A stretch of 64,000 nucleotides of DNA, from positions 321,354 to 385,353 of IMG/VR virus record IMGVR_UViG_3300021400_000141, one strand, 5' to 3'. This DNA comes from a virus. Lineage: Duplodnaviria > Heunggongvirae > Uroviricota > Caudoviricetes. A model generated the notes under the pieces. It did not search any database. It saw only the letters and a list, made by a program, of their open reading frames with translations, and was not told where the DNA came from. Shown one piece after another: positions 1,055-50,722 of the stretch (the stretch's first letter is position 1; each line of letters starts with the position of its first letter). A program made the position numbers and the translations under genes.

Positions 1055-1309
1055 TTGTCTGGAACAGTTTTCTGAACTCTAGACCGTGGTTATCAATCCA
1101 ACGACGAGCTAGGACATCCGACGACTCGTCGGAGCCTTCCTCTCGTTGTCTCATGATGTAGGCTCCTATAACCAACATCTGTATCTTCATTATGTTCTTT
1201 CCATGGTCCATACATATAGTTTATCGGCTAATTCTCGTACAATCCTTTATCCAGTGTGTTTGTGAAAAAATGTTTACATTTGATTTAATTAAAAATATTA
1301 TTCAACCTA

Positions 1310-1338
1310 TTGACAAAAGGATTATTTATTTATATTTT
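1310..1338 (+). promoter_or_regulatory. sigma70-type promoter (TTGACA, 17 nt, TATTTT)
   Basis: cctaTTGACAaaaggattatttatttaTATTTT upstream of ATG at 1366. Confidence 0.45.
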
Positions 1339-1365
1339 TGTTAAAAACTATCCAGCGGAAACTAT

Positions 1366-3114: not shown

Positions 3115-3642
3115 ATGTACGAAGCGCTTTTCAAAAGAATCAAGTCTACGGACTTCCCGTTGAAGTGCAGGGGAATGTACTATTTCAGCAAGGGAAGGCA
3201 TGCCCACCAAGAACGAAAGGGTTCTGGGTTTCCCTACTTTGTCCATCCGAGAGGCGTTGCTTACATCGTGATGGAACACGGGGGAACGGTTGACCAGATT
3301 AACGCCGCGTTTGCACACGACTTGCTTGAAGATACCGAGACATCGTATCTAGAAATCATGACTGTGGCAAATTCCGAACACTGTGCCGACCTCTGCACTG
3401 AACTCAGAAACAACGAAATACTCAAAGAGGAAATGGGCAAGGAAGCGTATATTTCGGAAAAGCTTCTTGGTATGAGCGAGGATGCTCTGTTAATCAAGCT
3501 TGCTGACATGGTATACAACTCTTATGACCAGCCTGGTGAAAAGGCGTTGAACCGAATGTACAAGAATGTATGCCAACTCCTGTTGAAGCGCACGCTTAAT
3601 GAAAAGTGTAAGGAATTGGCAGAACTTGTTCTGCTTGCATAA
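3115..3642 (+). CDS. SpoT/RelA-type HD-domain hydrolase (small alarmone hydrolase-like)
   Basis: HPRGVAYIV...AAFAHDLLEDT matches the Rel/SpoT HD hydrolase signature (H...HDxxED). Confidence 0.6.
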   Translation: MYEALFKRIKSTDFPLKCRGMYYFSKGRHAHQERKGSGFPYFVHPRGVAYIVMEHGGTVDQINAAFAHDLLEDTETSYLEIMTVANSEHCADLCTELRNNEILKEEMGKEAYISEKLLGMSEDALLIKLADMVYNSYDQPGEKALNRMYKNVCQLLLKRTLNEKCKELAELVLLA

Positions 3643-8924: not shown

Positions 8925-8954
8925 CTTGACAAGACGGATTTAATATGCTATATT
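8925..8954 (+). promoter_or_regulatory. sigma70-type promoter (TTGACA, 18 nt, TATATT)
   Basis: cTTGACAagacggatttaatatgcTATATTg upstream of queC. Confidence 0.5.
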
Positions 8955-8985
8955 GATGAAAAACAACATCAACAAAAGGTCTCAT

Positions 8986-9933
8986 ATGACAAAAGCAAAA
9001 AACACCAGAACTCTCAAAACGCTTAAACATATCGCTGACAACTTCGGGAAGGATAAGCGCAAGTCTGAAAAGAAGGAACATCTTCTTGACAAGATTATGG
9101 CCAAGAAGGAGGAAGAACTTGTGGATGTTTTGGACGAAGGCGAGTCTCCGATGGAAGACGTTATGCCCGAAAAGGAAGCTGAACCCGCACATGAAGTTGC
9201 CCCTAAGCCGCTTGACGTAAGGCCGATTACCAAGAAATTTGACGGGATTAAGCAGAATGTTGTTGTTTTCAGTGGTGGCTTTGACAGCACCTTGATTTTG
9301 GTTGACCTGCTTGAAAAGGGCATTAAACCCAGGTTGCTTACTTTCCAGTGCAGACAGTTTGGTGAAAACCGTCATTTCACTTCTGAAATTGCAGCCCAGG
9401 AAAAAATCCTCGAATATCTCGCCAAGAAGTACGACTACGAGCCGAACCGTGATTACATGAAGCTTGAAGGCGACATGATTGGTTGGACTGGTGCTGAACC
9501 GTCCCTGTTCCAGCAGCCATTTATGCTTTCGATGGTTTCTATGGGTGGCCGTAACAACGCTTGCTACCACTTCGGATATCATCGTGGCGACGATTTCTGG
9601 CACAGTTCTCACAATATACTTGCCGCACAGGAACACCTGCTTGCAGTGGCCGGCCAGAAGAACATCATGTTCAGCTTCCCCCTGCAGTTCTTGACCAAGG
9701 CTGACATTATCCGTAACCTGAACCATTACCACTTCCCGACCGAACTCTGCACTTTCTGCTATTCGCCGACCTACAAGGGACGTTGCGGACATTGCGTTGC
9801 TTGCCAGACGTACGAAAAGGCGATGTCCGAAATTGTGCATCTGTCTGGAACCTATGAAGGAATGTCCAACCAGTTGTACTATCCTGATGGGTTCATCGAA
9901 CAGACGAAGCACCGTTCAATGTGGGATGATTAA
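8986..9933 (+). CDS. queC: 7-cyano-7-deazaguanine synthase QueC-like (PP-loop ATPase) with a K/E-rich N-terminal extension
   Basis: PP-loop VVVFSGGFDSTLIL; C-terminal Zn site CGHCVACQ; start set at the ATG after aaaagg because the upstream TTG/ATG lies inside the promoter -10 region. Confidence 0.75.
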   Translation: MTKAKNTRTLKTLKHIADNFGKDKRKSEKKEHLLDKIMAKKEEELVDVLDEGESPMEDVMPEKEAEPAHEVAPKPLDVRPITKKFDGIKQNVVVFSGGFDSTLILVDLLEKGIKPRLLTFQCRQFGENRHFTSEIAAQEKILEYLAKKYDYEPNRDYMKLEGDMIGWTGAEPSLFQQPFMLSMVSMGGRNNACYHFGYHRGDDFWHSSHNILAAQEHLLAVAGQKNIMFSFPLQFLTKADIIRNLNHYHFPTELCTFCYSPTYKGRCGHCVACQTYEKAMSEIVHLSGTYEGMSNQLYYPDGFIEQTKHRSMWDD

Positions 9934-9951
9934 CAACAAAGAGAATTTGAA

Positions 9952-10914
9952 ATGGAAAAGAAACTAAATACATATACAAACGGAAACCACAAGGTGACCA
10001 TCTATTCCGATGGCACCAAAATCAAAGAAACAATCGACCCCAAGGCCGACCATTTCACTTATGATTTTCCAGAGAACTTCGACATTAAAATCACCGACCA
10101 GTGCGATGGCGGTTGCGTATATTGTCACGAAAACTCCACTGTGAATGGAAAGCATGGAGACCTTCGTGCTTTGGAACCGATGATTGCAACCCTGCATGCT
10201 GGTACGGAATGCGCTGTGGGCGGGGGCAACGCATTGGCTCACCCTGACCTCGTATGGTTCCTAGAACGCTTGAAGGAACAGGGTGTCATTGCGAACATCA
10301 CCATCAACCAGCGTCACCTGAGACCGTACAAGGACCTCATCTGCAAGATTGTAGGTGAAGGCCTTGTTCACGGAATTGGCATTTCGCTGACCGATGCAAG
10401 CAACAAGGACGACTTTGCGTTTATCGACACTCTCGGAAACAATGTTGTCATCCACACGATTGCGGGCATCCTTTCGGAAAACGATGTTGCCCCCCTGTTT
10501 GGCCGCAAGATTCTTATCCTTGGCTACAAGGACTTGCGTCGTGGTCACACTTTGCTCGAAAAGCAGTCCGAAGAAATCAAGGCGAACATCAAGTGGTTGC
10601 AGAGCCTGTTGGTACGGATTGGTTCAACCAATATCAATCCGTTCAAGGTAATCTCGTTTGACTGCCTCGGTATCGAACAGCTTAACCCGAAGGCGTTGCT
10701 CAACATTTCCGACGCCCGTTATGATACCCTGTTCCAGGGTTCTGACACGGATGTTATGGACGCTGACGGAAACATTGCCTGTGCGACAATGTACATCGAC
10801 GTTCCCAACATGCAGGTTGCCCGTATGAGCACAGCCGCTTTGGACAAGCGTTATCCGTTCACTGGAAAAGAAAACATTCACGACCTTCTTCAGATTACTA
10901 CACAAGGATGGTAA
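9952..10914 (+). CDS. radical SAM protein, QueE-like (7-carboxy-7-deazaguanine synthase family)
   Basis: CDGGCVYC (Cx3Cx2C) followed by a GGGNALAHP segment resembling QueE SGGNP; longer than typical QueE. Confidence 0.5.
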   Translation: MEKKLNTYTNGNHKVTIYSDGTKIKETIDPKADHFTYDFPENFDIKITDQCDGGCVYCHENSTVNGKHGDLRALEPMIATLHAGTECAVGGGNALAHPDLVWFLERLKEQGVIANITINQRHLRPYKDLICKIVGEGLVHGIGISLTDASNKDDFAFIDTLGNNVVIHTIAGILSENDVAPLFGRKILILGYKDLRRGHTLLEKQSEEIKANIKWLQSLLVRIGSTNINPFKVISFDCLGIEQLNPKALLNISDARYDTLFQGSDTDVMDADGNIACATMYIDVPNMQVARMSTAALDKRYPFTGKENIHDLLQITTQGW

Positions 10915-12089: not shown

Positions 12090-12827
12090 ATGAAGAAAAT
12101 TCTATTCGTATTATTGTTCTTGTTCTCGATGGCATCCGCTATCGAGATACCGCCGACACCGAAAAACACATTTGTGTACGACGGTGCTGGCATCATGTCC
12201 GCAAACGAGGTGTACCAGTTCAATGCAATCGCCGCTGACCTTGCAAAGAACGCAAACTTCGGTCTTGCCTTGGCCACATTCAAGTCGATTGACGGTCAGG
12301 ACCCCGTTGAATTCAGTTTGAAGGTTGCCCAGAAGTGGGCGATTTGCAGCAAGGATTCCAACGAGGGTGTCCTAATCTATGTCGTAATGGAGCCGCACCT
12401 GAGAGGCGTGCAGGTTGGCTACGGTTCGGAAGGCTATCTTCCCGATGTCCTTGTGGAACACATGCAGGAAGTCTCTCTTATCCCCGCATTGCAACAGGGT
12501 AAGGGAGGTCAGGGTGCCATCAAGCTTGCCAGCATGATTGCACAGAAGGTGCAGGAAGAGAAGAAGATTGCTCTGTCTGCAACACTCGATACGGCACAGC
12601 TCGCTCCTGCCGAAGGAGACCATCTCAAAGGGTGGCAGAAGGGTCTGATTATCTTCATTATCATCGCAGTTTTCATCCTGTTGGGCATCATCGAGGCGGT
12701 CACCGACATTCCGTGTTTGAGTGGTTTGCTTCTCATTCTTTCCTGCCTTGGTAAAGGCGGTGGAGGTGGTGGCCGTGGTTTCGGTGGAGGCGGATTCGGC
12801 GGTGGCGGAAGTCACGGTGGCTGGTAG
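12090..12827 (+). CDS. TPM-domain (YgcG-like) membrane protein
   Basis: signal peptide, TPM-like domain, TM helix GLIIFIIIAVFILLGII, Gly-rich C-terminus GGGGGGRGFGGGGFGGGGSHGGW. Confidence 0.6.
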   Translation: MKKILFVLLFLFSMASAIEIPPTPKNTFVYDGAGIMSANEVYQFNAIAADLAKNANFGLALATFKSIDGQDPVEFSLKVAQKWAICSKDSNEGVLIYVVMEPHLRGVQVGYGSEGYLPDVLVEHMQEVSLIPALQQGKGGQGAIKLASMIAQKVQEEKKIALSATLDTAQLAPAEGDHLKGWQKGLIIFIIIAVFILLGIIEAVTDIPCLSGLLLILSCLGKGGGGGGRGFGGGGFGGGGSHGGW

Positions 12828-12829
12828 CC

Positions 12830-12858
12830 TTGACAAGAATTAAATTAAATACTATATT
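12830..12858 (+). promoter_or_regulatory. sigma70-type promoter (TTGACA, 17 nt, TATATT)
   Basis: cTTGACAagaattaaattaaatacTATATTtt upstream of lemA. Confidence 0.5.
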
Positions 12859-12893
12859 TTAACCAAAACATTAAAACAAAGAGGTAAATAACC

Positions 12894-13490
12894 ATGTCTA
12901 CGGGCAAAATCATCCTTATCGTTCTCGCTGTTCTCGCATTCATCGGCGGAGCAACGCTTATCGGACAGTTCAACGGCATCCGCACCCTTGAAAACGGTGT
13001 GCAGATGAGCTGGGCCAATGTCGAAAACCAGTATCAGCGTCGTTACGACCTTATCCCGAACATCGTCGAATCGGTGAAGGGTGAGGCAAACTTTGAAAAG
13101 AGCACGCTCACCGAAGTCATCGAAGCACGCAGCCGCATGGGTGGCGTGATGAAGATGGATGAAAGCATGCTTGGCGACGAACGTGCAATGAAGCGCTTCC
13201 AGGAAGCTCAGAACAGCCTCGGTGGTGCATTGCAGCGTCTCATGATGCTTACTGAAAACTATCCCAACTTGAAGGCTAATGCCGCTTTCCGAGACTTGCG
13301 TGTTGAACTTGAAGGATGCGAAAACCGTATCGCCGAAGCAAGGCGTCAGTTCAACAAGTCTGTCAACGACTTGAACAACAAGGTAAGAACTTTCCCTGGC
13401 GTTCTCGTTGCTGGTATCGCAGGCGTGACCCCGAAGGTTCCGTTCTCCGCAGTGACTGGTGCTGATGTAGCACCGACCGTGAAGTTCTAA
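12894..13490 (+). CDS. lemA: LemA family protein
   Basis: N-terminal TM helix, then QYQRRYDLIPNIVESVKG, LTEVIEARSRM and RQFNKSVNDLNNKVRTFPGVLVAGIAG, the typical LemA signature. Confidence 0.8.
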   Translation: MSTGKIILIVLAVLAFIGGATLIGQFNGIRTLENGVQMSWANVENQYQRRYDLIPNIVESVKGEANFEKSTLTEVIEARSRMGGVMKMDESMLGDERAMKRFQEAQNSLGGALQRLMMLTENYPNLKANAAFRDLRVELEGCENRIAEARRQFNKSVNDLNNKVRTFPGVLVAGIAGVTPKVPFSAVTGADVAPTVKF

Positions 13491-14047: not shown

Positions 14048-14593
14048 ATGAGTCTCATCGACAGATTGTGGGAAGGTGTATGTGAAGGTGGGCCGTCTAT
14101 CCTAGCTTGTCATGAACGGATAATCGGCGGAATGGTCTATGCCTTTAAGAAGGCGTCTGAAACTGAAATAACTTTGGACGTATATTACGGAAATGACCAC
14201 TACGATTTTGGTGTGGTGTTCAGGTCGGTTGTAAATGACAAGGAGCACTCCCCGTGTGTGACCATGAAGTACCCACCGAAGGAAAAATACGAGTTCATCC
14301 ATGTTCAGGATGCTGTTGGAATGATTGGAACATCATTGCTTGGTGACTACAAGGAATGGAGTGATGATTCCATTAAACAGTGGGTTGAAAGCATGATTGA
14401 TGAGTACGGGAAGCTTGCCTCTTGGAGAATATGGGTTTCCAAGAAGTTCAAGGAACTGGAATCATCCCTGCTTGAACCTGACTGGAATATCGTAGCGGCA
14501 ATCACTAAGGAGATAAAAGCTCATTCCGACCTGATATTCAAACATGGACATGTCACATGTGAGGAAAGTCCCGAAGACGAGAGAGAGGGATAA
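14048..14593 (+). CDS. hypothetical protein immediately upstream of cas3
   Basis: RBS ggaggt; its stop lies 4 nt before the cas3 ATG, so probably co-transcribed. Confidence 0.5.
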   Translation: MSLIDRLWEGVCEGGPSILACHERIIGGMVYAFKKASETEITLDVYYGNDHYDFGVVFRSVVNDKEHSPCVTMKYPPKEKYEFIHVQDAVGMIGTSLLGDYKEWSDDSIKQWVESMIDEYGKLASWRIWVSKKFKELESSLLEPDWNIVAAITKEIKAHSDLIFKHGHVTCEESPEDEREG

Positions 14594-14597
14594 AAGC

Positions 14598-16838
14598 ATG
14601 AACCCGAACGACTTATTGGCGAAAAGTGATGGCACTACATTGATAGCTCATTCCAGAGCAGTAGCTGACATGGCAAAGAGAATTGCTGAAACACTTGGCT
14701 TCGATAGTGTGTTAACCGCACTATGCTATGTGGCCGGGCTTTTGCATGATATCGGCAAAGCAATATCACCTTTTCAGGAAATACTGCGTGAAAATGAGCA
14801 TGGGCCTGGTAAATTGAGCGACGATTGCAATGCTCGTCACAGTGCAGTAAGCGGATGGTTTATGGCTAACCATGCAGCAACGTTCGATAAGATGGTTCCT
14901 GGTGTGAATGGCAGAGCTAGTGAAATCTTGTGCCGTGCCGTTACATGGCACCACAAGCCATATTTTCCTGTTGAGGAAAGTCGGTTTGCGTACGATGAAC
15001 AGTTCGATGCAGAAATCAAGTCGTTTGTTGATGCACTCGTTGATAACCTTGATTGGAGCATTAGTTCTGACGATGATTTTGATTTTTCTGGTGGAGATTT
15101 TTCCTATTTCTATACAAGAAATCTTTCTGGTAAAATCAATTCTCGAATTCATGCTGTGAGGTCGGTAGTCATTCGTGCTGACTATCTTGTAAGTGGAGGT
15201 GTTTCCGAATACTCGATAAGTAAACTTGCACCTATTGATATTGATTCTATCGCATGCCCGATTGATTTCAATGCAGAGCGATTTGTATTTCAGCGAAACG
15301 AAATTGCAAAGAAAGCAATGGAATCTGGCAAGAAAACTGTTGTGATAAATGCACCCGCAGGTTTTGGAAAAACTATTATTGGTCTGCTTGCAGGACTTCA
15401 TCGAGGTGAAAAGATTTACTGGGTTGTTCCAAGAAACGTTATTGCCGAAGAAGTGTATCGTTCTATTTCGGATTTGCTGTCGATGTTGAATGTATCGGAA
15501 ACATATTCGTTGAACATGATTTTTGGCGGCAAGGTTCAGCTTGGCCCAGAAAATGCCGACATTACAGTAACTAACATTGATGCTATCTTGCAGCCGATGG
15601 GTCAACATGGAAATATGGGTTTGCAGTGTGATATGCTGAGTGGAACAATGATATTTGACGAATATCATGAACTGGTAGGAAATAGCCCGATGTGGTCGGC
15701 ATTTCTTATCCTCATGGCTGCAAGAATGGAGGCGAACGGTAGAAATATCCTCGTTTCGGCAACACCGTTAGATATCATGTCGTGTTTGAAAGTGAACCCT
15801 GATGATGTTCTGTATCTTCCAGGTAAGAACATCCATTACCAAGCACAGCATTCAGTTCCATACCATATCGAAACTGCTGACAGCATGCCCTCCTTGGTTA
15901 GTGGAGATAGCTTCGCTATCAGCAACTGCATTTCACGTGTGCAGAAAGTACAGTGTGGAATTATGTTTCATAGCAAGTATACTGACGAAGACAAAAACGG
16001 CATCATATCCCAATTATTGAATTCGTTCGGAAAGGGAAAGACCAATGTAGTCGATGGGGTATCAGCAGGCCCGATTTTGAGCACTTCGCTTGACCTATCG
16101 TGTACACATTTGTATGAAAGTGTATGCAGTCCTATGGATTCCATGCAGCGAATTGGGCGGTGTAACCGCTTTGGAAACAAAAGTGGATGCTCGGTAACCT
16201 TCGTGACTGGAAGCGTTCCAGGTGAACGAGATTATGTGGATATGAAATTTACGACGGAGCTTCGTTCAGAATGGTGTGACACTATCCGTCGGGAATTCAA
16301 TAAAAAAGATATTACTCTTGATGAAATGTATCGTTGCTACGATAAGTTCATGGAAGAAAATGCTGCCCGCATTAAAAGGTGGATGGTTGGTCTGCAACAA
16401 GAGAGCATTAACTGCCTCGTTACAAGCTGTGCCCCATGTGTCTTTGAAGTTGCTTTGCCGAAAAAGAACAAAGGCAAAAGCGGTGGTACTATACGAAACC
16501 CAGAACCAAATATGTACTACATAGTCCCATCTGCCGATGAGAAGACCTACTATGGGCCTTTCAGTATCGACATTGCCACGGCAAACGGGCCGAAGTATGG
16601 TAGAATATTCAGACAGGTGAACAACTTAACGGAATACGAAAAGGCCAAGCAGGCATCTCCTGCTCTTGTGAACGGAACGACAGAATATCTCTCTGGCGGA
16701 ACCCGTAAGAAACGGTGGTATAAGGAGAATGCAGACAAGTTGGCTAGAAACTCGGAAAGCCCGTTTGTCGTATCTGCTAGGTACATGACATACGACTCGT
16801 TCAATGGAGTTGTATTCAACTCGAATATGGAAGACTAA
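14598..16838 (+). CDS. cas3: Cas3 HD-nuclease/helicase (no Cas2 fusion)
   Basis: N-terminal HD motifs (LIAHSRAV, LLHDIGKA); helicase Walker A INAPAGFGKT, DExH box MIFDEYHE, SAT-like LVSATPL, motif VI QRIGRCNRFG. Confidence 0.85.
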   Translation: MNPNDLLAKSDGTTLIAHSRAVADMAKRIAETLGFDSVLTALCYVAGLLHDIGKAISPFQEILRENEHGPGKLSDDCNARHSAVSGWFMANHAATFDKMVPGVNGRASEILCRAVTWHHKPYFPVEESRFAYDEQFDAEIKSFVDALVDNLDWSISSDDDFDFSGGDFSYFYTRNLSGKINSRIHAVRSVVIRADYLVSGGVSEYSISKLAPIDIDSIACPIDFNAERFVFQRNEIAKKAMESGKKTVVINAPAGFGKTIIGLLAGLHRGEKIYWVVPRNVIAEEVYRSISDLLSMLNVSETYSLNMIFGGKVQLGPENADITVTNIDAILQPMGQHGNMGLQCDMLSGTMIFDEYHELVGNSPMWSAFLILMAARMEANGRNILVSATPLDIMSCLKVNPDDVLYLPGKNIHYQAQHSVPYHIETADSMPSLVSGDSFAISNCISRVQKVQCGIMFHSKYTDEDKNGIISQLLNSFGKGKTNVVDGVSAGPILSTSLDLSCTHLYESVCSPMDSMQRIGRCNRFGNKSGCSVTFVTGSVPGERDYVDMKFTTELRSEWCDTIRREFNKKDITLDEMYRCYDKFMEENAARIKRWMVGLQQESINCLVTSCAPCVFEVALPKKNKGKSGGTIRNPEPNMYYIVPSADEKTYYGPFSIDIATANGPKYGRIFRQVNNLTEYEKAKQASPALVNGTTEYLSGGTRKKRWYKENADKLARNSESPFVVSARYMTYDSFNGVVFNSNMED

Positions 16839-16936: not shown

Positions 16937-17965
16937 ATGATTAAACAGATTCCAACAATCAAACTTCATGTCACGTTCAAGGGTCAGGGAATAGTCAACT
17001 ATGACGGCAAAGACCAGAAGCAGGTTATTTTGGACACCAAAGCAATTACACTTCCTCGTGATAATCAAGGGAAAGTTCGTGATAACCTTAAAATTGCCAA
17101 GGCCACGTATGCCATTGATGGTGATGGAAACGTAAAACGCTCTGTAAAGGTGTCTTCAGATTGTATTCGTCAGGCCATTTTCAGATTAAAACATAACCCG
17201 AACATTGTTTTTAGCCCAGTATTGTTTAACGACTGGATTTCATCAAAGACAGCGCTAGTGAGAGGATATTTTTTTCCAAAAGATGGGGGAAATGCGGCTA
17301 GCCGAAAGAGCCCTCTGACCGTGCTTGATGCACTAGAAGTAAGTGGGCAGATTTCCACGTTTAACGTTCATAGTAACAGCGGTGCTCGTACCGACAATAG
17401 TCTGTACTATGTGGAAGAGATTGGGGAAACCCGTTTCGAAAACGACATGTATATCGACCTTTCTGAACTTAAGCATATCGTGTTATCTGACACATACGGT
17501 AGAAACAGTGTGTTTTCTGACGGTGAAGAATCCCTTGTTGCAAAGCTCCGTGAAAAGTACGGTGTAGTCACAACAGGGTTTTTCCGCATGGATGGAGAAA
17601 CTGTGGAGGTTCCTGAATACGGGGCGGAAATCTCTGATGAAGCAGTTGTGTCTATTGTACGGGATTTGATTGACCATATAAAGCAGTTACATATCAACCG
17701 TTCTAACGCATACCTGGAATGTGATACCATTGAGGTGTTTGCATTCGAAAACGGTGCGTGGATTCCTATGGATGAAAAGAGCAACTTTACTGTCAAAAGT
17801 AGTTATGTTCTCATTGAAGACCAAGACGGTGCAAAAACGCTTCATGACGATGTATGTGACAAGGCAAATCAGGGACAGACTGCCCGCAAAGAAGCAAAGA
17901 AAGAAGAAGCCGCAAAGAAAGCTGCAAAGAAAGCTGCCAAAAAAGCAGCAAAGGACAATACATAG
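16937..17965 (+). CDS. putative Cascade subunit A (Cas5/Cas8-like or Cas7-like) with Lys/Ala-rich C-terminal tail
   Basis: position between cas3 and cas6; 342 aa; C-terminal AKKEEAAKKAAKKAAKKAAK; no confident motif match. Confidence 0.4.
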   Translation: MIKQIPTIKLHVTFKGQGIVNYDGKDQKQVILDTKAITLPRDNQGKVRDNLKIAKATYAIDGDGNVKRSVKVSSDCIRQAIFRLKHNPNIVFSPVLFNDWISSKTALVRGYFFPKDGGNAASRKSPLTVLDALEVSGQISTFNVHSNSGARTDNSLYYVEEIGETRFENDMYIDLSELKHIVLSDTYGRNSVFSDGEESLVAKLREKYGVVTTGFFRMDGETVEVPEYGAEISDEAVVSIVRDLIDHIKQLHINRSNAYLECDTIEVFAFENGAWIPMDEKSNFTVKSSYVLIEDQDGAKTLHDDVCDKANQGQTARKEAKKEEAAKKAAKKAAKKAAKDNT

Positions 17966-17967
17966 CC

Positions 17968-18912
17968 ATGGCGTTTCTTGACCTGACAATTAAACTTACC
18001 GATGGTAAGCGGTTTCGGGCGGCAGACCGAATTAATCAAAATAGTACAGATTTTAAGTCGAGTAATATTCATGACGATTGCCCTGATGATACAATCCCTA
18101 TAACATCTGTTGCAAACATCCTCGCTAAACTGTCTGGTCATCGTCCATGGAAGCGTAATGACATTGAACTAGGAAAGGTTCCTATTAGTTTCTCCCGTTT
18201 CATGAATATGGCAAATCGGTCTCGTGTGGAGATATTCACTGTAGGTGGAAACAAGGAACTTATGCGAAGTTCAAAGGCATCCCATTCTGGTACAAAACAA
18301 ACGTGGAAACTTAGACTTGACGGCAATCTGTTTCCTATAGTGCGTAACTTACCTACTTATGAAACCATCCAAGCAGTACTCCCTGAGGTAGACTGGAAAA
18401 ACTTGGAGGCAATGCTCATAAACCTGTTTGGCTCAGATTACCGTACCAACTTGACCTCAGGAGCGACATCTGCTGCAGCGATGATTGAGAATCTCCGTAA
18501 AGAATATCTGCGTGGCAACAAAGAGGTTATTGCATTTTGCGAATACTACAAGAATACATCGACCAAACTTCGTGATTTGCTTATTGTCCCGCTGACAACA
18601 GGTTCTCCAGTCCGAGATGGTAAAAAATACAAGGTATTCCGCATTGACAGTCCAATAGGAAAGACTTCTGTAGAAAGGCTTTTACATAACAAGACAAATA
18701 CCCACGGCATTCTCATGGCTCAGGTAGTTTCTGGTGTTTTGCATGTCAAAATTGCCGAGAGTGAATTGGAGATGTTTCGTAACGGTCCAGGATTTGCCAC
18801 ATTCCTAGACGGAGGTGTGGCAGAAATTGAAACGCTTGACCTTGACTACTGGCAAAGTGAAACCGATAGCTTACCGAATCCGTTTATATCAAAAACAACA
18901 AAACAGGAGTAA
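17968..18912 (+). CDS. putative Cascade subunit B (Cas7-like or Cas5-like)
   Basis: 314 aa; starts 2 nt after the stop of the preceding gene; position matches the I-F variant layout cas5fv-cas7fv-cas6f. Confidence 0.4.
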   Translation: MAFLDLTIKLTDGKRFRAADRINQNSTDFKSSNIHDDCPDDTIPITSVANILAKLSGHRPWKRNDIELGKVPISFSRFMNMANRSRVEIFTVGGNKELMRSSKASHSGTKQTWKLRLDGNLFPIVRNLPTYETIQAVLPEVDWKNLEAMLINLFGSDYRTNLTSGATSAAAMIENLRKEYLRGNKEVIAFCEYYKNTSTKLRDLLIVPLTTGSPVRDGKKYKVFRIDSPIGKTSVERLLHNKTNTHGILMAQVVSGVLHVKIAESELEMFRNGPGFATFLDGGVAEIETLDLDYWQSETDSLPNPFISKTTKQE

Positions 18913-18917
18913 CCTAT

Positions 18918-19472
18918 ATGCGAACTGTATTCTACTGCACTATTCATCATGACCATAAGGCTACCCACAACGATATTCACAAAAAGATAACAGCCATTTA
19001 CCAACAATCCCCTGGCCCTCGTTGGTGTAGCAACGGCTCGGTTGTTGAGGTTGTTAGCGATAAAATGCCTATACGTTGCGACCAGGTTTCATCTGTTCGT
19101 GAAGTTAGTGTGCCTACTGGGTTACTTACACTATCGTTTCAGTACCCTGCAATACGTCGTAGCAATGATGGTAAGAAGGAGCATGTAAAGATATACGATT
19201 CCCCTGCTATTGCAAAAAAACAAATTTCTGAGAAGGTATGCACCCGTCTGAGCGAACTTGGAATGTCTGATGTTCGTATAGTGGAATATGTACACAACGT
19301 ATGTCGTCTTGACTTGCATGACCGTAAGAATGGTATATCAAAAGTTCCCGTGTCGTTCATCGTTGCCAAGTGCGTTTGTGCAGATGAGGATAAAGTACGA
19401 CATCTTATGGTGAACGGAATAGGAAAGTTCCGCTTCGCAGGCCTCGGGATGATTTATGTAACAGAAGGGTAA
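18918..19472 (+). CDS. cas6: Cas6-family CRISPR repeat endoribonuclease (Cas6f-sized)
   Basis: 184 aa; C-terminal glycine-rich loop GIGKFRFAGLG (GhGxxxxxGhG); its stop codon directly abuts the first CRISPR repeat. Confidence 0.7.
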   Translation: MRTVFYCTIHHDHKATHNDIHKKITAIYQQSPGPRWCSNGSVVEVVSDKMPIRCDQVSSVREVSVPTGLLTLSFQYPAIRRSNDGKKEHVKIYDSPAIAKKQISEKVCTRLSELGMSDVRIVEYVHNVCRLDLHDRKNGISKVPVSFIVAKCVCADEDKVRHLMVNGIGKFRFAGLGMIYVTEG

Positions 19473-19925
19473 GTTTCCCGTGCATACGGGAATTGAAATG
19501 AATACAAAGCCCTATCTTATTCATTGAAAATATGTTTCCCGTGGGAGCGGGAATTGAAACTTTGCACTCGTCCCTCGTAATGGGTTTTCAAAATGTTTCC
19601 CGTGAATACGGGAATTGAAAGAGCGCACTTGTTCCTCGGAATGGGTTTATACAATGTTTCCCGTGTGTTCGGGAATTGAAACGAATACGATACCTGGCTA
19701 CGACAGAGCTACAATGTTTCCCGTGTTTGCGGGAATTGAAAGAGATACGTGTGAGGGTTTCCCCATTCTCCAGTAGGTTTCCCGTGTTTGCGGGAATTGA
19801 AACTCATATTGGACCTCGCCGTTTACGATGTCGAAAGGTTTCCCGTGTGTGCGGGAATTGAAACGATACATTGACAGACCCGAAACATTGGGACGAATGT
19901 TTCCCGTTTATGCGGGAATTAAAAA
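19473..19925 (+). CRISPR. CRISPR array, 8 repeats and 7 spacers, type I-F-like hairpin repeat
   Basis: repeats (ATGTTTCCCGTG-NNNN-CGGGAATTGAAAC) start at 19473, 19534, 19595, 19656, 19716, 19777, 19838 and 19899 with 60-61 bp periodicity; 6-bp stem TTCCCG/CGGGAA with a variable 6-nt loop; unique 32-34 nt spacers; last repeat degenerate (..CGGGAATTAAAAA). Confidence 0.9.
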
Positions 19926-19954
19926 AGCCCACACCATTAAGGTGTTGGCTTTCT
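19921..19954. terminator. bidirectional rho-independent terminator shared by the CRISPR array and clpX
   Basis: aaaaaa-agcccacacc-attaa-ggtgttggct-ttct; 9/10 bp stem; the A6 on plus gives a T6 for the minus-strand clpX transcript. Confidence 0.65.
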
Positions 19955-19966
19955 AACTTAATTTTC

Positions 19967-21214
19967 TTATGATGCTTTCCGTTCTTGTATATTGAAGTGT
20001 TCCATCACCATGTCTTGCGTGATGTGGATTTCCTTCTGTTCGCTGTCGGGGCCCATGAACATTGCGTTATGGAGCAACTCTTCGACGATTGAACGGAGGC
20101 CACGAGCGCCCGTATGACGGTCGATTGTCAGCCTTGCGATTTCACCAAGGGCTTCTTCGTCGAGCGTGAGTTTAATGCCGTCAAGTTCGAGGAGTTTTGT
20201 GTACTGCTTGATGATGGCATTCTTCGGTTCGGTCAGGATGCGACGGAGGGCTTCTTCGTCAAGTTCATCGAGTGCGACGGTAACGGGAAGTCGTCCCACA
20301 AGTTCAGGCATGAGGCCGAACTTCACGAGGTCATCGGGTTCGCACTTATCGAAGAGTTCACTGAGGCTCTTCTTTTCCTTATTGTGGATGGTGGCACCGA
20401 ATCCCATGCCGCCACTCTCGGTACGCTCGGAAATGATGTCTTCCAGCCCCTCGAACGCTCCACCGCAGATGAAGAGGATGTTCCTCGTGTCAATTGAAAT
20501 AAGTTTCTGCTCGGGGTGCTTTCGTCCGCCCTGCGGATTGATTTTAGCCTCGGTTCCTTCCAGGAGTTTCAACAGTCCCTGCTGAACACCTTCGCCAGAA
20601 ACGTCTCGGGTGATAGATGGGTTGGAACTCTTCCTTGCAATCTTGTCGATTTCGTCGAGGAAGATGATGCCGTGTTCAGCGGCGATAGCGTCCATGTCTG
20701 CAGCTTGGAGGAGACGGGAGATGATGCTGTCCACATCTTCGCCCACGTAGCCTGCCTCGGTAAGGACGGTTGCATCGGCGATTGCGAACGGCACGTCGAG
20801 CATCTTGGCGATAGCCCTTGCGAGCATCGTCTTTCCGCAACCAGTCGGGCCCACGAGGAGGACATTAGACTTCTCGATTTCCACATCGTCGTCCGAACGG
20901 ATTGCGTTGTAGTCCAGACGCTTGTAATGGTTGTACACGGCGATAGAAAGGGCTTCCTTGGCCTTGTCCTGACCGATTACGAACTGGTCGAGGTGTTCCT
21001 TAATCTTGTGCGGGGATGGCAGAGCAGCGGCTTTCTTTGGCTTAGGTTCCTTGAGCATGGGGGATTTTGCACCCATCATGCTACTGGCGAGCTTGACGCA
21101 GTCTTCGCAAATCGTTGCGTACATTCCGCTTACGGCCTTCGCTGTAGGTGCAAGGGGCTTTCCGCAGAAGCTGCAAGCAGGGGTAGTTTCTTGTGTAGGT
21201 TTTTTAGTTGCCAT
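19967..21214 (-). CDS. clpX: ATP-dependent Clp protease ATP-binding subunit ClpX
   Basis: N-terminal zinc-binding domain CSFCGK...CEDC; Walker A LLVGPTGCGKT; IIFLDEIDKIARK; full-length ClpX architecture (415 aa). Confidence 0.9.
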   Translation of the reverse strand: MATKKPTQETTPACSFCGKPLAPTAKAVSGMYATICEDCVKLASSMMGAKSPMLKEPKPKKAAALPSPHKIKEHLDQFVIGQDKAKEALSIAVYNHYKRLDYNAIRSDDDVEIEKSNVLLVGPTGCGKTMLARAIAKMLDVPFAIADATVLTEAGYVGEDVDSIISRLLQAADMDAIAAEHGIIFLDEIDKIARKSSNPSITRDVSGEGVQQGLLKLLEGTEAKINPQGGRKHPEQKLISIDTRNILFICGGAFEGLEDIISERTESGGMGFGATIHNKEKKSLSELFDKCEPDDLVKFGLMPELVGRLPVTVALDELDEEALRRILTEPKNAIIKQYTKLLELDGIKLTLDEEALGEIARLTIDRHTGARGLRSIVEELLHNAMFMGPDSEQKEIHITQDMVMEHFNIQERKAS

Positions 21215-24531: not shown

Positions 24532-25680
24532 ATGTTTGGCGACGTGATTAACAACATCTGCGGTGCGCCTCGTGAATACGGGGTTGTGCTCGGGTCTTTC
24601 AGCCCGATGCACACAGGTCATCTTGACCTCGTAATGGCAGCGAAGAAGCTCTGCTCTAAGGGCGCTATCATTGCCGTTTGCGGTCTTGATGGTGACCGTG
24701 GCACGAGAATCGGTCTCCCTATTGAACGCCGCTATGAAATCATCAAGAAGATGTTTGAAGGCGACCCGCTTGTACACGTCGTCATGATGAAGGATAACGA
24801 TATCGGCATCGCAGGTTACATGGACAAGTGGGCTGAATGGTTGGAAGCCCTAAGCTATAAAATAGCTGAAGTCGTGTATGGCAATGCTGATATTAGCAAG
24901 AGAAAGTGCATGAAATTGCTTCAACGCACGACTGTCTTTACTGGTGAAGAGTCGTACAGACAGGCAATCATGTCGTTGGTGATGAAGGGCCCTAATGTGT
25001 TCCAGTTGTCCAGGAAATTGAATACGATTTCTGCGACAAAGATACGAAAGCAACCGATGAAGTATTGGGACGAAATCATTGGGTATGAGTTCAAGGCTCA
25101 GTTCGCCAAGCGTGTCTTGATTATCGGTACGGCATCGGAAGGAAAGTCTACTCTCACGAAAGACCTTGCACGATATTTCGATGCGGGTTGCACCGAGGAG
25201 TATGGACACACGTATATTGCCGATGTGAATGGTGAAACCCCACATCCAGACGATACCAAGCTGACCTACGATGACTACATCCGTTTCCTTGACGAACAGT
25301 ATCGTGTCAACTCGGCAAGCTGGCATAAGGTTAACATCTGTGACAGTGACGCAATGACGACGCTCATGTATGCCAAATACTATTCGATGGATGACAGGTA
25401 TGCCATCACCGAAGAAGATTACAAGCGTATCGAAGCGCATGCAAAGTTCCTGAAGTACGATGCAATCTTTGTTCTTCCACCGAAGAAGGACAGTTGGGTG
25501 CAGGACGGCAGCAGGGATTGCCTCACCAACAGTTTCGAAGACCGTAAGAAGCAGTACCAGGTATTGATGAGCATTATCGGACAGCACTACTGCACCGAAG
25601 ATATCGTTTACCTGAACGGCACTTATCACGAGAACTTCATGAGGGCCAGAGACAAAATCAAGAGTTTGCTTTCTGACTAG
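24532..25680 (+). CDS. nadR: bifunctional NMN adenylyltransferase / ribosylnicotinamide kinase (NadR-like, no HTH)
   Basis: N-terminal HxGH nucleotidyltransferase motif GSFSPMHTGH; C-terminal Walker A GTASEGKST. Confidence 0.75.
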   Translation: MFGDVINNICGAPREYGVVLGSFSPMHTGHLDLVMAAKKLCSKGAIIAVCGLDGDRGTRIGLPIERRYEIIKKMFEGDPLVHVVMMKDNDIGIAGYMDKWAEWLEALSYKIAEVVYGNADISKRKCMKLLQRTTVFTGEESYRQAIMSLVMKGPNVFQLSRKLNTISATKIRKQPMKYWDEIIGYEFKAQFAKRVLIIGTASEGKSTLTKDLARYFDAGCTEEYGHTYIADVNGETPHPDDTKLTYDDYIRFLDEQYRVNSASWHKVNICDSDAMTTLMYAKYYSMDDRYAITEEDYKRIEAHAKFLKYDAIFVLPPKKDSWVQDGSRDCLTNSFEDRKKQYQVLMSIIGQHYCTEDIVYLNGTYHENFMRARDKIKSLLSD

Positions 25681-25692
25681 GCTGAATGGACT

Positions 25693-25767
25693 CGGGTAGT
25701 ATCCCAACTGGTAGAGGAATGGGACTTAAAATCCTTACAGGTGTGGGTTCGAATCCCACCTGCCCGA
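25693..25767 (+). tRNA. tRNA, anticodon loop cTTAAaa (anticodon UAA, Leu-type) in a short-variable-arm scaffold
   Basis: acceptor cgggtag/ctgcccg (one G-U pair), U8, D-loop with GG, T-arm gtggg-TTCGAAT-cccac, discriminator A; anticodon stem only 4 bp. Confidence 0.5.
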
Positions 25768-25786
25768 TTAAAAGTAAGGTGTAATT

Positions 25787-26980
25787 ATGATTGAGATACA
25801 GGGAAAGTTTAATACGGCCAAGGTGTTCACCGACAATATCGAGCCCGAGGCTTACACACAGTTGTTGAACATGATGTGCCAGTGCTGGGCTAAGGACATG
25901 CAGGTTCGCGTCATGCCCGACGTACATGCTGGAAAGGGGTGTACGGTTGGAACCACTATGACCATCAAGGACAAGGTTGTTCCTAACCTGGTCGGGGTGG
26001 ACATTGGGTGTGGTATGCTTGTCGCCAAGTTGAAAGACCGTTCGGTTGATTTCGACAAGTTGGACAAGGCTATCCGTGAAAGGATTCCATCTGGTAAGAG
26101 CCACCGTGAAAGCAAGCATTCGATGGCAAAGGACTTTCCTATCGAGGATATGATTGTCTACAAGGAAGGGAAGATGGAGTATACCGAGCTGTTGTCGCTT
26201 GGGTCACTCGGCGGTGGCAACCACTTCATCGAACTGGACAAGGATTCCCACGGCAATCTGTACATCGTAATCCACTCTGGTTCCCGTCATCTTGGGTTGG
26301 CAACATGCGATTACTGGCAGGGACTTGCAATCGACGAATGCAATGACCTTACGCAGCAGCGTGGGGCCATTATCGCCAAGTACAAGCGTGAGGGACGTGA
26401 AAACGAGCTTGAAGCGGCGTTGGCAAGCATCCCTCATTTCCCGCCACCGAAGGAACTGTCTTACCTCACTGGCAAGTCGTTCGACGGATATCTGCATGAC
26501 ATGGCGTTGGCACAGGAGTTTGCAACACGCAACCGCGAAGCGATGCTTGAAGAGATTGTCAGGGCGCTCCGCCTGCATGTTGTGGACAAGTTCTGCACAT
26601 TGCATAACTACATCGACTTGAAGCACATGATACTCCGCAAGGGTTCTGTATCGGCTCAGGAAGGTGAGCGTCTTATCGTTCCTTTGAACATGAGGGATGG
26701 TTCTCTTATCTGCACTGGTAAGGGAAACCCTGACTGGAACTTCTCGGCTCCTCACGGTGCAGGACGCAAGATGTCCCGTTCAAAGGCTAAGGAAAGCATC
26801 TCCCTTGAAGCGTACCAGAAGGCCATGCGTGGCATCTACACGACTTGTGTAAACAAATCTACTTTGGATGAATCCCCGATGGCATACAAGCCGTCCAAGG
26901 AAATAATCGAGAACATCAAGGATAGTTGCGATGTTGTAGATACTATCAAGCCTGTGTACAACTTCAAGGCATCTGACTGA
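25787..26980 (+). CDS. rtcB: RtcB-family RNA 3'-phosphate/2',3'-cyclic-phosphate ligase
   Basis: MPDVHAGKGCTVGT, GCGM, SLGGGNHF, HNYI and APHGAGR motifs in RtcB order. Confidence 0.9.
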   Translation: MIEIQGKFNTAKVFTDNIEPEAYTQLLNMMCQCWAKDMQVRVMPDVHAGKGCTVGTTMTIKDKVVPNLVGVDIGCGMLVAKLKDRSVDFDKLDKAIRERIPSGKSHRESKHSMAKDFPIEDMIVYKEGKMEYTELLSLGSLGGGNHFIELDKDSHGNLYIVIHSGSRHLGLATCDYWQGLAIDECNDLTQQRGAIIAKYKREGRENELEAALASIPHFPPPKELSYLTGKSFDGYLHDMALAQEFATRNREAMLEEIVRALRLHVVDKFCTLHNYIDLKHMILRKGSVSAQEGERLIVPLNMRDGSLICTGKGNPDWNFSAPHGAGRKMSRSKAKESISLEAYQKAMRGIYTTCVNKSTLDESPMAYKPSKEIIENIKDSCDVVDTIKPVYNFKASD

Positions 26981-50643: not shown

Positions 50644-50718
50644 TGCCCCGTAGCTCAATGGACTTAGAGCGTCGCTCTCCGAAGGCGAAGGTTACGAGTT
50701 CAACCCTCGTCGGGACAA
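50644..50718 (+). tRNA. tRNA-Arg (anticodon CCG)
   Basis: acceptor tgccccg/cgggaca (one C-A mismatch), U8, D-stem gctc/gagc, anticodon loop cuCCGaa, variable aggtt, T-arm acgag-TTCAACC-ctcgt, discriminator A. Confidence 0.65.
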
Positions 50719-50722
50719 CTAA

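Follow-up and report, generated by a model that had tools for sequence, protein, structure and literature searches.

Homologous spacers with codon-structured differences in the CRISPR array of a type I-Fv-like locus on an apparently huge phage

The CRISPR array analyzed here directly follows a cas operon in a 64,000-nucleotide stretch of a Caudoviricetes genome (positions 321,354 to 385,353 of IMG/VR record IMGVR_UViG_3300021400_000141; this whole stretch is called the window below). Spacers 2 and 3 of the array (S2 and S3) are homologous, their differences are codon-structured, and in related arrays each of them occurs without the other. We consider it likely that S2 and S3 are two alleles of one guide, representing diverged versions of one coding site, and that they serve the I-Fv-like system of a huge phage without cas1 and cas2, widening its range.

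Similarity and codon structure of S2 and S3

Aligned in register, S2 and S3 have the same base at 23 of 33 positions. A first-pass annotation of the sequence had called the two spacers homologous, with about 26 of 34 positions identical; by its boundaries, which take in two repeat bases (AT) and whose coordinates correspond to S2, repeat 3, and S3, the count is 25 of 34, and the homology itself holds. The ten differences are located at positions 1–4, 10, 13, 19, 29, 30, and 32, and the core (positions 5–28) is identical at 21 of 24 sites. A repeat search and Tandem Repeats Finder (TRF) both pick up the pair of 61-nt units, at 77–80% identity. The binomial probability of at least 23 matches in 33 is 1.0e-7 for one pair and 2e-6 over the 21 spacer pairs of the array, the other 20 of which match at 3–14 of 33 positions. 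Together with the occurrence of the family in four allelic forms in independent contigs, these values leave practically no room for chance or low-complexity similarity.

Read from the second base of the spacer (frame +1), S2 encodes FALVPRNGFS and S3 encodes SALVPRNGFI. The peptide ALVPRNGF of the first-pass annotation is thus correct, and the three internal changes (CTC/CTT, GTC/GTT, and CGT/CGG) are synonymous in this frame, as it had stated. The opposite strand is equally open and reads FENPLRGTSAK in S2 and CINPFRGTSAL in S3. A column shuffle on the four known alleles gave three variable amino-acid columns in the better of the two frames that are phased with the protospacer adjacent motif (PAM), +1 and −0 (P = 0.004), which bears out the proposal that the differences follow codons and are not random. 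Frame +1 predicts G-[F/S]-A-L-V-P-[R/L]-N-G-F, and the opposite strand predicts [F/V/C]-[E/I]-N-P-[L/F]-R-G-T-S-A followed by Pro.

Related arrays and their allele families

Arrays adjoining Cas6 homologues were gathered from IMG/VR, NCBI, ENA, JGI, and Logan contigs and are referred to by L numbers; further Cas6-linked arrays sought in IMG/VR yielded only two loci that were already known. The exact seven spacers of the window are present in five further independent samples, with one differing base in a repeat loop, so the array is static. S3 is found unchanged (33/33) and without S2 in L005 and L046–L049 (cas6 95.7% identical to the window at the nucleotide level). S2-type alleles without S3, each with two differences, are found in L068 (cas6 96.6%) and in L029–L032 (cas6 93.3%). 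A duplication after the split of the window and L005 predicts ~1.4 differences, and 10 are seen (P = 2.5e-6). The first-pass annotation had named an internal duplication as the alternative to homologous targets; a recent one is contradicted by this excess and by the separate occurrence of the alleles. A similar excess is seen in S1, whose copies in the window and L005 have 11 differences in 33 positions where 1.4 are expected at this cas6 identity (P = 3e-7), and seven S1 alleles are known across the relatives. L005 further shares S5 (two differences) and S6 (identical) with the window, and L068 shares S7 (one difference). At positions 10 and 18 of the S2/S3 family, all four haplotypes are present, which argues for recombination, repeated sampling of a polymorphic target, or recurrent mutation.

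We found that 55 of the 93 distinct spacers in the arrays of the clade fall into 16 allele families, a family being defined by the same register and at least 20 identical positions; by chance, ~0.3 such pairs are expected in 5253. Two alleles stand within one array in four families, namely S2/S3 (window type), b/b' (L005, L019 and others, L046), K1/K2 (L019, L020), and a pair in L050. When the columns of the 16 families were shuffled 3000 times, 67.8 amino-acid columns varied on average and never fewer than 54, compared with the 34 observed (P < 3e-4); an earlier version of the test gave 23 variable columns against 35.1. K1 and K2 both read KSAYEVWLD, with Ser encoded by TCT in one and AGC in the other, and b and b' both read SAMMLAK, with Ser as AGC or TCG. 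A synonymous TTG/CTG switch also occurs among sister families, and five synonymous changes are present in a P-loop-like family whose peptide is CGKTLV[AT]AMW. The earlier suggestion that the array covers target diversity is supported by the 16 families and the four cases of paired alleles. Its mention of escape variants carries less weight: the ten differences between S2 and S3, together with the Ser codon switches of three bases in sister families, indicate deep divergence and make an origin by single-step escape unlikely.

Frame +1, the frame chosen in the first pass, is best or tied-best in 13 of the 16 families. Stop-free spacers (n = 74) amount to 86% in frame +1 and 74% in frame −0, and to 51–68% in the other four frames. 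On the sense strand, the spacers therefore seem mostly to begin with the third base of a codon; in the alternative phasing, antisense-strand protospacers seem to end ahead of a Pro codon. Within the motif SG[ST]E-Q-DF[LF]D, spacer 6 of L007 has an in-frame TAG in place of the Gln codon CAG of its alleles (spacer 3 of L050, L065, and L066); TAG may be read as glutamine by the targeted phage.

A complete relative (L002/L003) contains cas3fv, cas7fv, cas5, cas6 (60% identical), cas1, cas2, a leader, and a long array, in which at least 25 of 31 repeats are identical and equal to the consensus of the window's array. It is located on a 42-kb contig of JGI sample 3300028833, and the same sample holds a copy of the window's array. 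In L002 (IMGVR_UViG_3300028833_000278, ~1170–1360, minus strand), two spacers come from overlapping stretches of one target and share ACCAAGGAAGCGCGCGACCG, which would match the expected product of primed acquisition. In L046, spacers 3 and 4 (b and b'') differ only in the Ser codon at positions 2–4 (AGC in one, TCG in the other) and have a derived T in common at position 13, which suggests a crossover or gene conversion between neighbouring homologous spacers.

Target searches and the origin of the paired alleles

The first-pass annotation had proposed comparing the spacers with phage, plasmid, and host collections and with the rest of the genome, and none of the seven spacers of the window has a match in the collections searched. 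A codon-degenerate S2/S3 core gave 0 matches in IMG/VR; with N at the three variable sites, the core matched only the related array L005 in JGI metagenomes and gave 0 matches in GTDB genomes. A looser pattern gave nine scattered matches in GTDB, at no more than 24 of 33 nt, which were judged to be chance or motif-level matches, and Rfam has no RNA family at these sites. One of them, in a Paenibacillus gene that is PspA-like in appearance, is read in another frame. The peptide ALVPRNGFR is kept in TldD/PmbA-like proteins of two phyla (L057 5609–5632, a metagenome-assembled genome (MAG) of Methylomirabilia, and L059 291–314, a MAG of Nitrospirae). Such proteins are the sole recurrent protein context of the S2/S3 peptide, probably by coincidence; homology was judged from the translated context. 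In blastn searches of INPHARED and PLSDB, S2 and S3 gave only chance 17–23-mers (E ≥ 3), and the concatenated spacers of the window clade returned nothing from INPHARED at E up to 10. Self-targeting is not indicated either: no spacer matches the window or the flanks of its relatives outside the arrays, and the peptide motifs of S1, S2/S3, b, and K are absent from the window outside the array. The P-loop and b families had 0 matches in IMG/VR, and the sole match of a CACTTTC family is a related array.

Other spacers of the clade led to protein-coding sites. A codon-degenerate search with the K family led to collagen-like tail-fibre proteins of phages, in which the motif GKSAYEVWLDxGNxGTxxDFL recurs 2–7 times per protein, including proteins on viral contigs of 175 kb, 252 kb, and 422 kb, and a second family with the common core AGGACTTC corresponds to the other half of this motif. 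These sites are homologues of the targets and not the targets themselves, because the nucleotide identity is only 24–25 of 34. Spacer 17 of L010, a more distant relative of 205 kb, matches a Microviridae VP1 capsid gene at 30 of 32 nt and 10 of 10 amino acids, and spacer 12 matches the same gene at 25 of 32 nt; the pair of sites listed for the two spacers is 3566–3597 and 2768–2799 of L064 (MG945580.1), a Microviridae genome from cattle faeces. Huge phages may use CRISPR against small single-stranded DNA phages. At both VP1 sites and at every tail-fibre motif site examined, GG directly precedes the site on the 5' side of the spacer-sense strand. The bias toward frame +1 would be explained by this GG, which forms the first two bases of a Gly codon. 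The PAM of I-F and I-Fv systems has been described as two G:C base pairs (PMC6546366); the GG flank agrees with this description, although the strand assignment is not reconciled with the convention of the literature and the sites belong to spacers of relatives and not of the window. An in-frame alignment of S3 with Microviridae VP1 (SALVPRNGFI versus SAIVPEAGYV) was rejected as not significant, with 5 of 10 identities and a non-GG flank, and a bait search with chimeric VP1 fragments found nothing.

How the two spacers came to stand side by side can be explained in several ways. A tandem duplication of a repeat–spacer unit followed by neutral drift, after which the similarity would be uninformative about targets, is in line with the adjacency of S2 and S3, the lack of cas1 and cas2, the repeat recombination that adds or removes units inside arrays (L019, L020, L022, L024, L025, L027), and the diverged repeat loops of old arrays. 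However, S3 is unchanged at a cas6 divergence of 4.3% and yet S2 differs from it at 10 of 33 positions, each allele stands alone in other lineages, the differences are codon-structured both in the family and clade-wide, positions 1–4 are all different (a probability of ~0.005 under uniform drift of 10 differences over 33 sites), and sister pairs show three-base synonymous Ser switches; such drift is very improbable. An old duplicated unit, or alleles joined by unequal crossover, could instead have tracked different target lineages by selected point mutations and not by acquisition. The codon structure is expected here too, the guide mirroring its target, and the absence of adaptation genes, the static arrays, the repeats that diverged one by one, as expected when there is no copying at the leader end, and the inheritance of spacer families down to ~80% (L007) and ~63% (L010) cas6 identity, several of them at similar relative array positions, all accord with it. 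We nevertheless regard tracking as unlikely, since some alleles, such as S1 of the window and of L005, differ far beyond the background, since the Ser switches and the wholly different first four bases are hard to reach stepwise with function kept, and since the four haplotypes at positions 10 and 18 would require recurrent mutation. Both spacers may also come from one target genome, as diverged copies of a motif in a single gene or in tandem paralogues. The first-pass annotation had assigned them to the same coding segment in two relatives of one gene; the homology stands, and two repeats inside one gene fit it equally well. The K and AGGACTTC-core families, which map to halves of the recurring tail-fibre motif, and the nucleotide divergence among copies of this motif, which is similar to that among alleles, speak for a single genome. 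Nothing in particular opposes it; still, the S2-type alleles and S3 segregate among lineages, for which lineage-specific targets are at least as good a fit, and the searches turned up no target with repeats that carries the ALVPRNGF or NPLRGTSA motif. We hold this origin to be rather unlikely. A diversity-generating retroelement was rejected, as the differences are not adenine-specific.

In the two-allele reading, which we consider likely, S2 and S3 would go back to a single 33-nt site next to a PAM in a protein-coding gene, in homologous sequence that had diverged under constraint at the protein level. The target versions could be orthologues from different lineages of a competing mobile element, for which another phage is the likeliest candidate, or repeats that diverged within one gene. 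The leaderless array would be read through from cas6, the effector would consist of Cas7fv, the putative Cas5fv, and Cas6, acting with Cas3, and each spacer would yield its own CRISPR RNA. In type I-F systems, positions 1–4 form the PAM-proximal seed; S2 and S3 differ at these four positions and at six more, so neither should recognise the target of the other, and the pair together would broaden the variants that the phage can cut. The adjacency would most likely have arisen when diverged arrays of co-infecting relatives underwent unequal crossover, or through capture by Cas1–Cas2 that a related complete system provided in trans; old duplicated units following their targets by selected point mutations would be a third route. 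Related arrays show that units are gained and lost internally and that neighbouring alleles exchange sequence.

Several points weigh against this reading. Searches of IMG/VR, JGI metagenomes, GTDB genomes, INPHARED, and PLSDB turned up no S2/S3 protospacer, so the coding origin and the homology of the targets are deduced by comparison among arrays. The reading strand is ambiguous, both frames being phased as the logic of the PAM expects: in frame +1 two S2-type alleles require an R-to-L change, which is synonymous in frame −0 (CGA/AGA), yet there S3 requires an L-to-F change. Frame +1 is favoured by analogy with the other families. Adjacent pairs in arrays without adaptation genes also fit local duplication, and neighbours in L046 exchange sequence; the repeated capture of exactly the same register is left unexplained; and the putative Cas5fv has no match in Pfam, NCBIfam, PADLOC, or PDB sequences. 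Clade-wide, the best explanation is that the arrays are inherited sets of guide alleles against conserved protein motifs, sets that change slowly and recombine. A more far-reaching reading, which we put forward as tentative and possible, would make the array less a log of fresh infections than an inherited multi-allelic gene family. A small number of PAM-phased sites in conserved motifs of competitor phages (tail-fibre repeats, the P-loop, and possibly Microviridae capsid genes are the candidate motifs) would be retained over long times, the guides would be exchanged among relatives at the repeats, and their alleles, at times two in one array as with S2/S3, would follow synonymous variation in the targets. 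The virus would then be using CRISPR in a quasi-innate way and with a broad spectrum.

The interference locus, its carrier, and its biological meaning

The features of the locus are collected in Table 1. The best PADLOC match of Cas3 is Cas3fv (3.3e-53), with NCBIfam matches to cas3_HD (8e-18) and cas3_core (2e-18) and the Pfam domains HD, DEAD, and Cas3-like_C_2, of which HD begins at about residue 30. Cas7 matches the NCBIfam Cas7fv model NF040577 at E 3.5e-25, but its 89 bits lie below the curated cut-off of 200 bits; it also matches PADLOC Cas7fv (1.6e-18) and chain C of PDB 5O6U, the Cas7fv of the Shewanella putrefaciens I-Fv Cascade (E 1.5e-11). The putative Cas5fv shares 65% identity with its positional counterpart in the complete L003 locus (cas3-cas7-cas5-cas6-cas1-cas2). 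The Cas6-like protein has a weak PADLOC match to a type IV Cas6 (6.6e-07) and is 60% identical to the L003 cas6 product. None of the three open reading frames (ORFs) between cas3 and the array is Cas8-like, and the locus lacks both a Cas8f large subunit and Cas11. A tblastn search of the 64-kb window with Cas1 and Cas2 of L003 detected no homologue of either, nor was cas1 or cas2 found around the relatives L004 and L010, and ORFs adjoining the cas operon had no matches in hidden Markov model (HMM) scans. Judged from these genes, the locus is classed as an interference-only, phage-borne derivative of type I-Fv (I-F2) and not as a full member, because Cas1 and the Cas2–Cas3 fusion are absent.

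Table 1. Positions of the cas genes, array elements, and adjoining features in the window
Feature	Position	Strand	Remarks
cas3	14544..16838	+	HD nuclease and helicase, no Cas2 domain
cas7fv-like backbone subunit	16937..17965	+	NCBIfam, PADLOC, and PDB matches
putative cas5fv	17968..18912	+	314 aa; assigned by position and size alone
cas6-like repeat endoribonuclease	18918..19472	+	184 aa; glycine-rich C-terminus GIGKFRFAGLGM
CRISPR array	19471..19924	+	8 repeats of 28 nt, 7 spacers of 32–33 nt
Repeat starts	19471, 19532, 19593, 19654, 19714, 19775, 19836, 19897	+	
Spacer 1 (S1)	19499–19531	+	allele family present in most relatives
Spacer 2 (S2)	19560–19592	+	CTTTGCACTCGTCCCTCGTAATGGGTTTTCAAA
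Repeat 3	19593–19620	+	between S2 and S3; loop AATA
Spacer 3 (S3)	19621–19653	+	GAGCGCACTTGTTCCTCGGAATGGGTTTATACA
Spacers 4–7 with repeats	19682–19896	+	S4 19682–19713, S5 19742–19774, S6 19803–19835, S7 19864–19896
Hairpin terminator	19925–19953		between array and convergent clpX; AAAGCCCACACCATTAAGGTGTTGGCTTT
clpX	19967–21214	minus	identified by Pfam; shares the hairpin terminator with the array

The repeat unit consists of ATGTTTCCCGTG, four variable nucleotides, and CGGGAATTGAAA (28 nt), with a period of 61 and once of 60. Every repeat folds into a hairpin of 6–7 bp, UUCCCG(U)/(G)CGGGAA, at −8.8 to −10.4 kcal/mol, followed by UUGAAA; the final copy, AATTAAAA, is degenerate. A leader is missing, as the first repeat of the array overlaps the stop codon of cas6 (TAA, 19470–19472). 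No promoter-like site was found between cas6 and the array, which is presumably transcribed by read-through from the cas operon; on the minus strand there is a terminator-like match at 19945–19931. The stem of the repeat is conserved across the phage arrays, including a covariation from G:C to A:T at pair 10:17, and the loops (positions 11–16) show 57 variants in 100 repeats, nearly every copy being different (window, L005, L007, L010, L019, L029, L045, L046, L050). Loops that have diverged individually indicate old arrays and fit arrays that no longer copy a leader-proximal repeat. As markers of orthologous units, the loops gave conflicting signals, and no inference was drawn from them.

The window looks like part of a huge phage: its Cas6 is encoded in identical form on contigs of up to 419 kb, one relative, a viral contig of IMG/VR of 174.8 kb, is syntenic, and the window itself holds many short ORFs, two transfer RNA (tRNA) genes, and PHROG families such as NMNAT and RtcB. 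A gene for a nicotinamide mononucleotide (NMN) adenylyltransferase-like protein and an RtcB RNA ligase gene (24532–26980) flank tRNA-Leu(TAA) at 25692–25768, and tRNA-Arg(CCG) is located at 50644–50719; such gene content is typical of huge phages. At 8953–10914, a QueC-like ORF stands beside a radical S-adenosylmethionine (SAM) ORF, with weak NCBIfam matches to QueC, QatC, and MoaA, and the two could be part of a DNA modification pathway of the 7-deazaguanine type. A gene of the LemA family (Pfam E 2e-52) next to an ORF weakly matching the photosystem II repair protein Psb32 (12090–13490) lies just upstream of two unassigned ORFs, which are followed by cas3.

The locus resembles the type I-Fv (I-F2) system of Shewanella putrefaciens CN-32 in its Cas7fv match, in the lack of a Cas8 or Cas11 gene between cas3 and cas7, in the order cas7-cas5-cas6, in its 28-nt hairpin repeats with a GAAA end and 32–33-nt spacers, and, for the sites examined with spacers of relatives, in the two flanking G:C pairs. 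It differs from that system in lacking cas1, in a Cas3 without a Cas2 domain, in a leaderless array abutting cas6, in being phage-borne, in a Cas5 candidate without a sequence match, in a Cas7 below the NCBIfam cut-off, and apparently in the position of GG on the spacer-sense strand. Primed adaptation in type I systems likewise gives several spacers against one target, and L002 holds such an overlapping pair. Priming yields neighbouring or overlapping sites and is not known to capture an identical register repeatedly from diverged homologues, and its machinery is absent from the present locus.

Virus-borne mini-CRISPR arrays reportedly have no adaptation genes of their own, have been proposed to target other viruses, and are said to contain one or two spacers, to lack cas genes, and to depend on host Cas proteins. 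Compared with such mini-arrays, the present locus has seven spacers and a full interference module. Medvedeva et al. (2019; PMC6858448) place these arrays in interviral conflicts. Vibrio phage ICP1 encodes a type I-F-related system that is used against a competing mobile element (PMC10161043); ICP1 has Cas1, Cas2/3, and a small Cas8f and acquires spacers, whereas this locus lacks the adaptation parts and has a Cascade of the Fv kind. In the parts of the huge-phage account by Al-Shayeb et al. (2020, Nature; PMC7162821) drawn on here, the CRISPR systems are almost always without adaptation genes, the arrays are compact (median six repeats), the repeats can resemble those of the hosts, and some spacers target core structural genes of other phages. 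The locus agrees with these systems on every count listed there, and an interference-only, phage-borne I-Fv derivative is of a kind already reported for huge phages; the main text of that account, so far as it was drawn on, describes no sets of homologous spacer alleles, whether inside one array or across arrays, and no codon-phased origin of spacers. In the literature consulted, we did not find a description of a guide repertoire made up of codon-structured allele families, with two alleles in some arrays.

Phage CRISPR systems without adaptation genes are known, and the present arrays bear on how their guide sets arise and stay useful. Allele families that take in more than half of the guides, alleles standing side by side, and stable arrays indicate long-term selection for guides against conserved coding motifs, and the same features point to updating by recombination, re-capture, or target-tracking mutation. 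A rule for the origin of the guides is also suggested, in which the spacer begins at the third base of a Gly codon beside a GG PAM. If confirmed, these findings would make testable which competitors are hit (small Microviridae and tailed phages are the candidates), whether the exclusion range grows with paired alleles, and whether a leaderless array can be loaded by Cas1–Cas2 of a related element.

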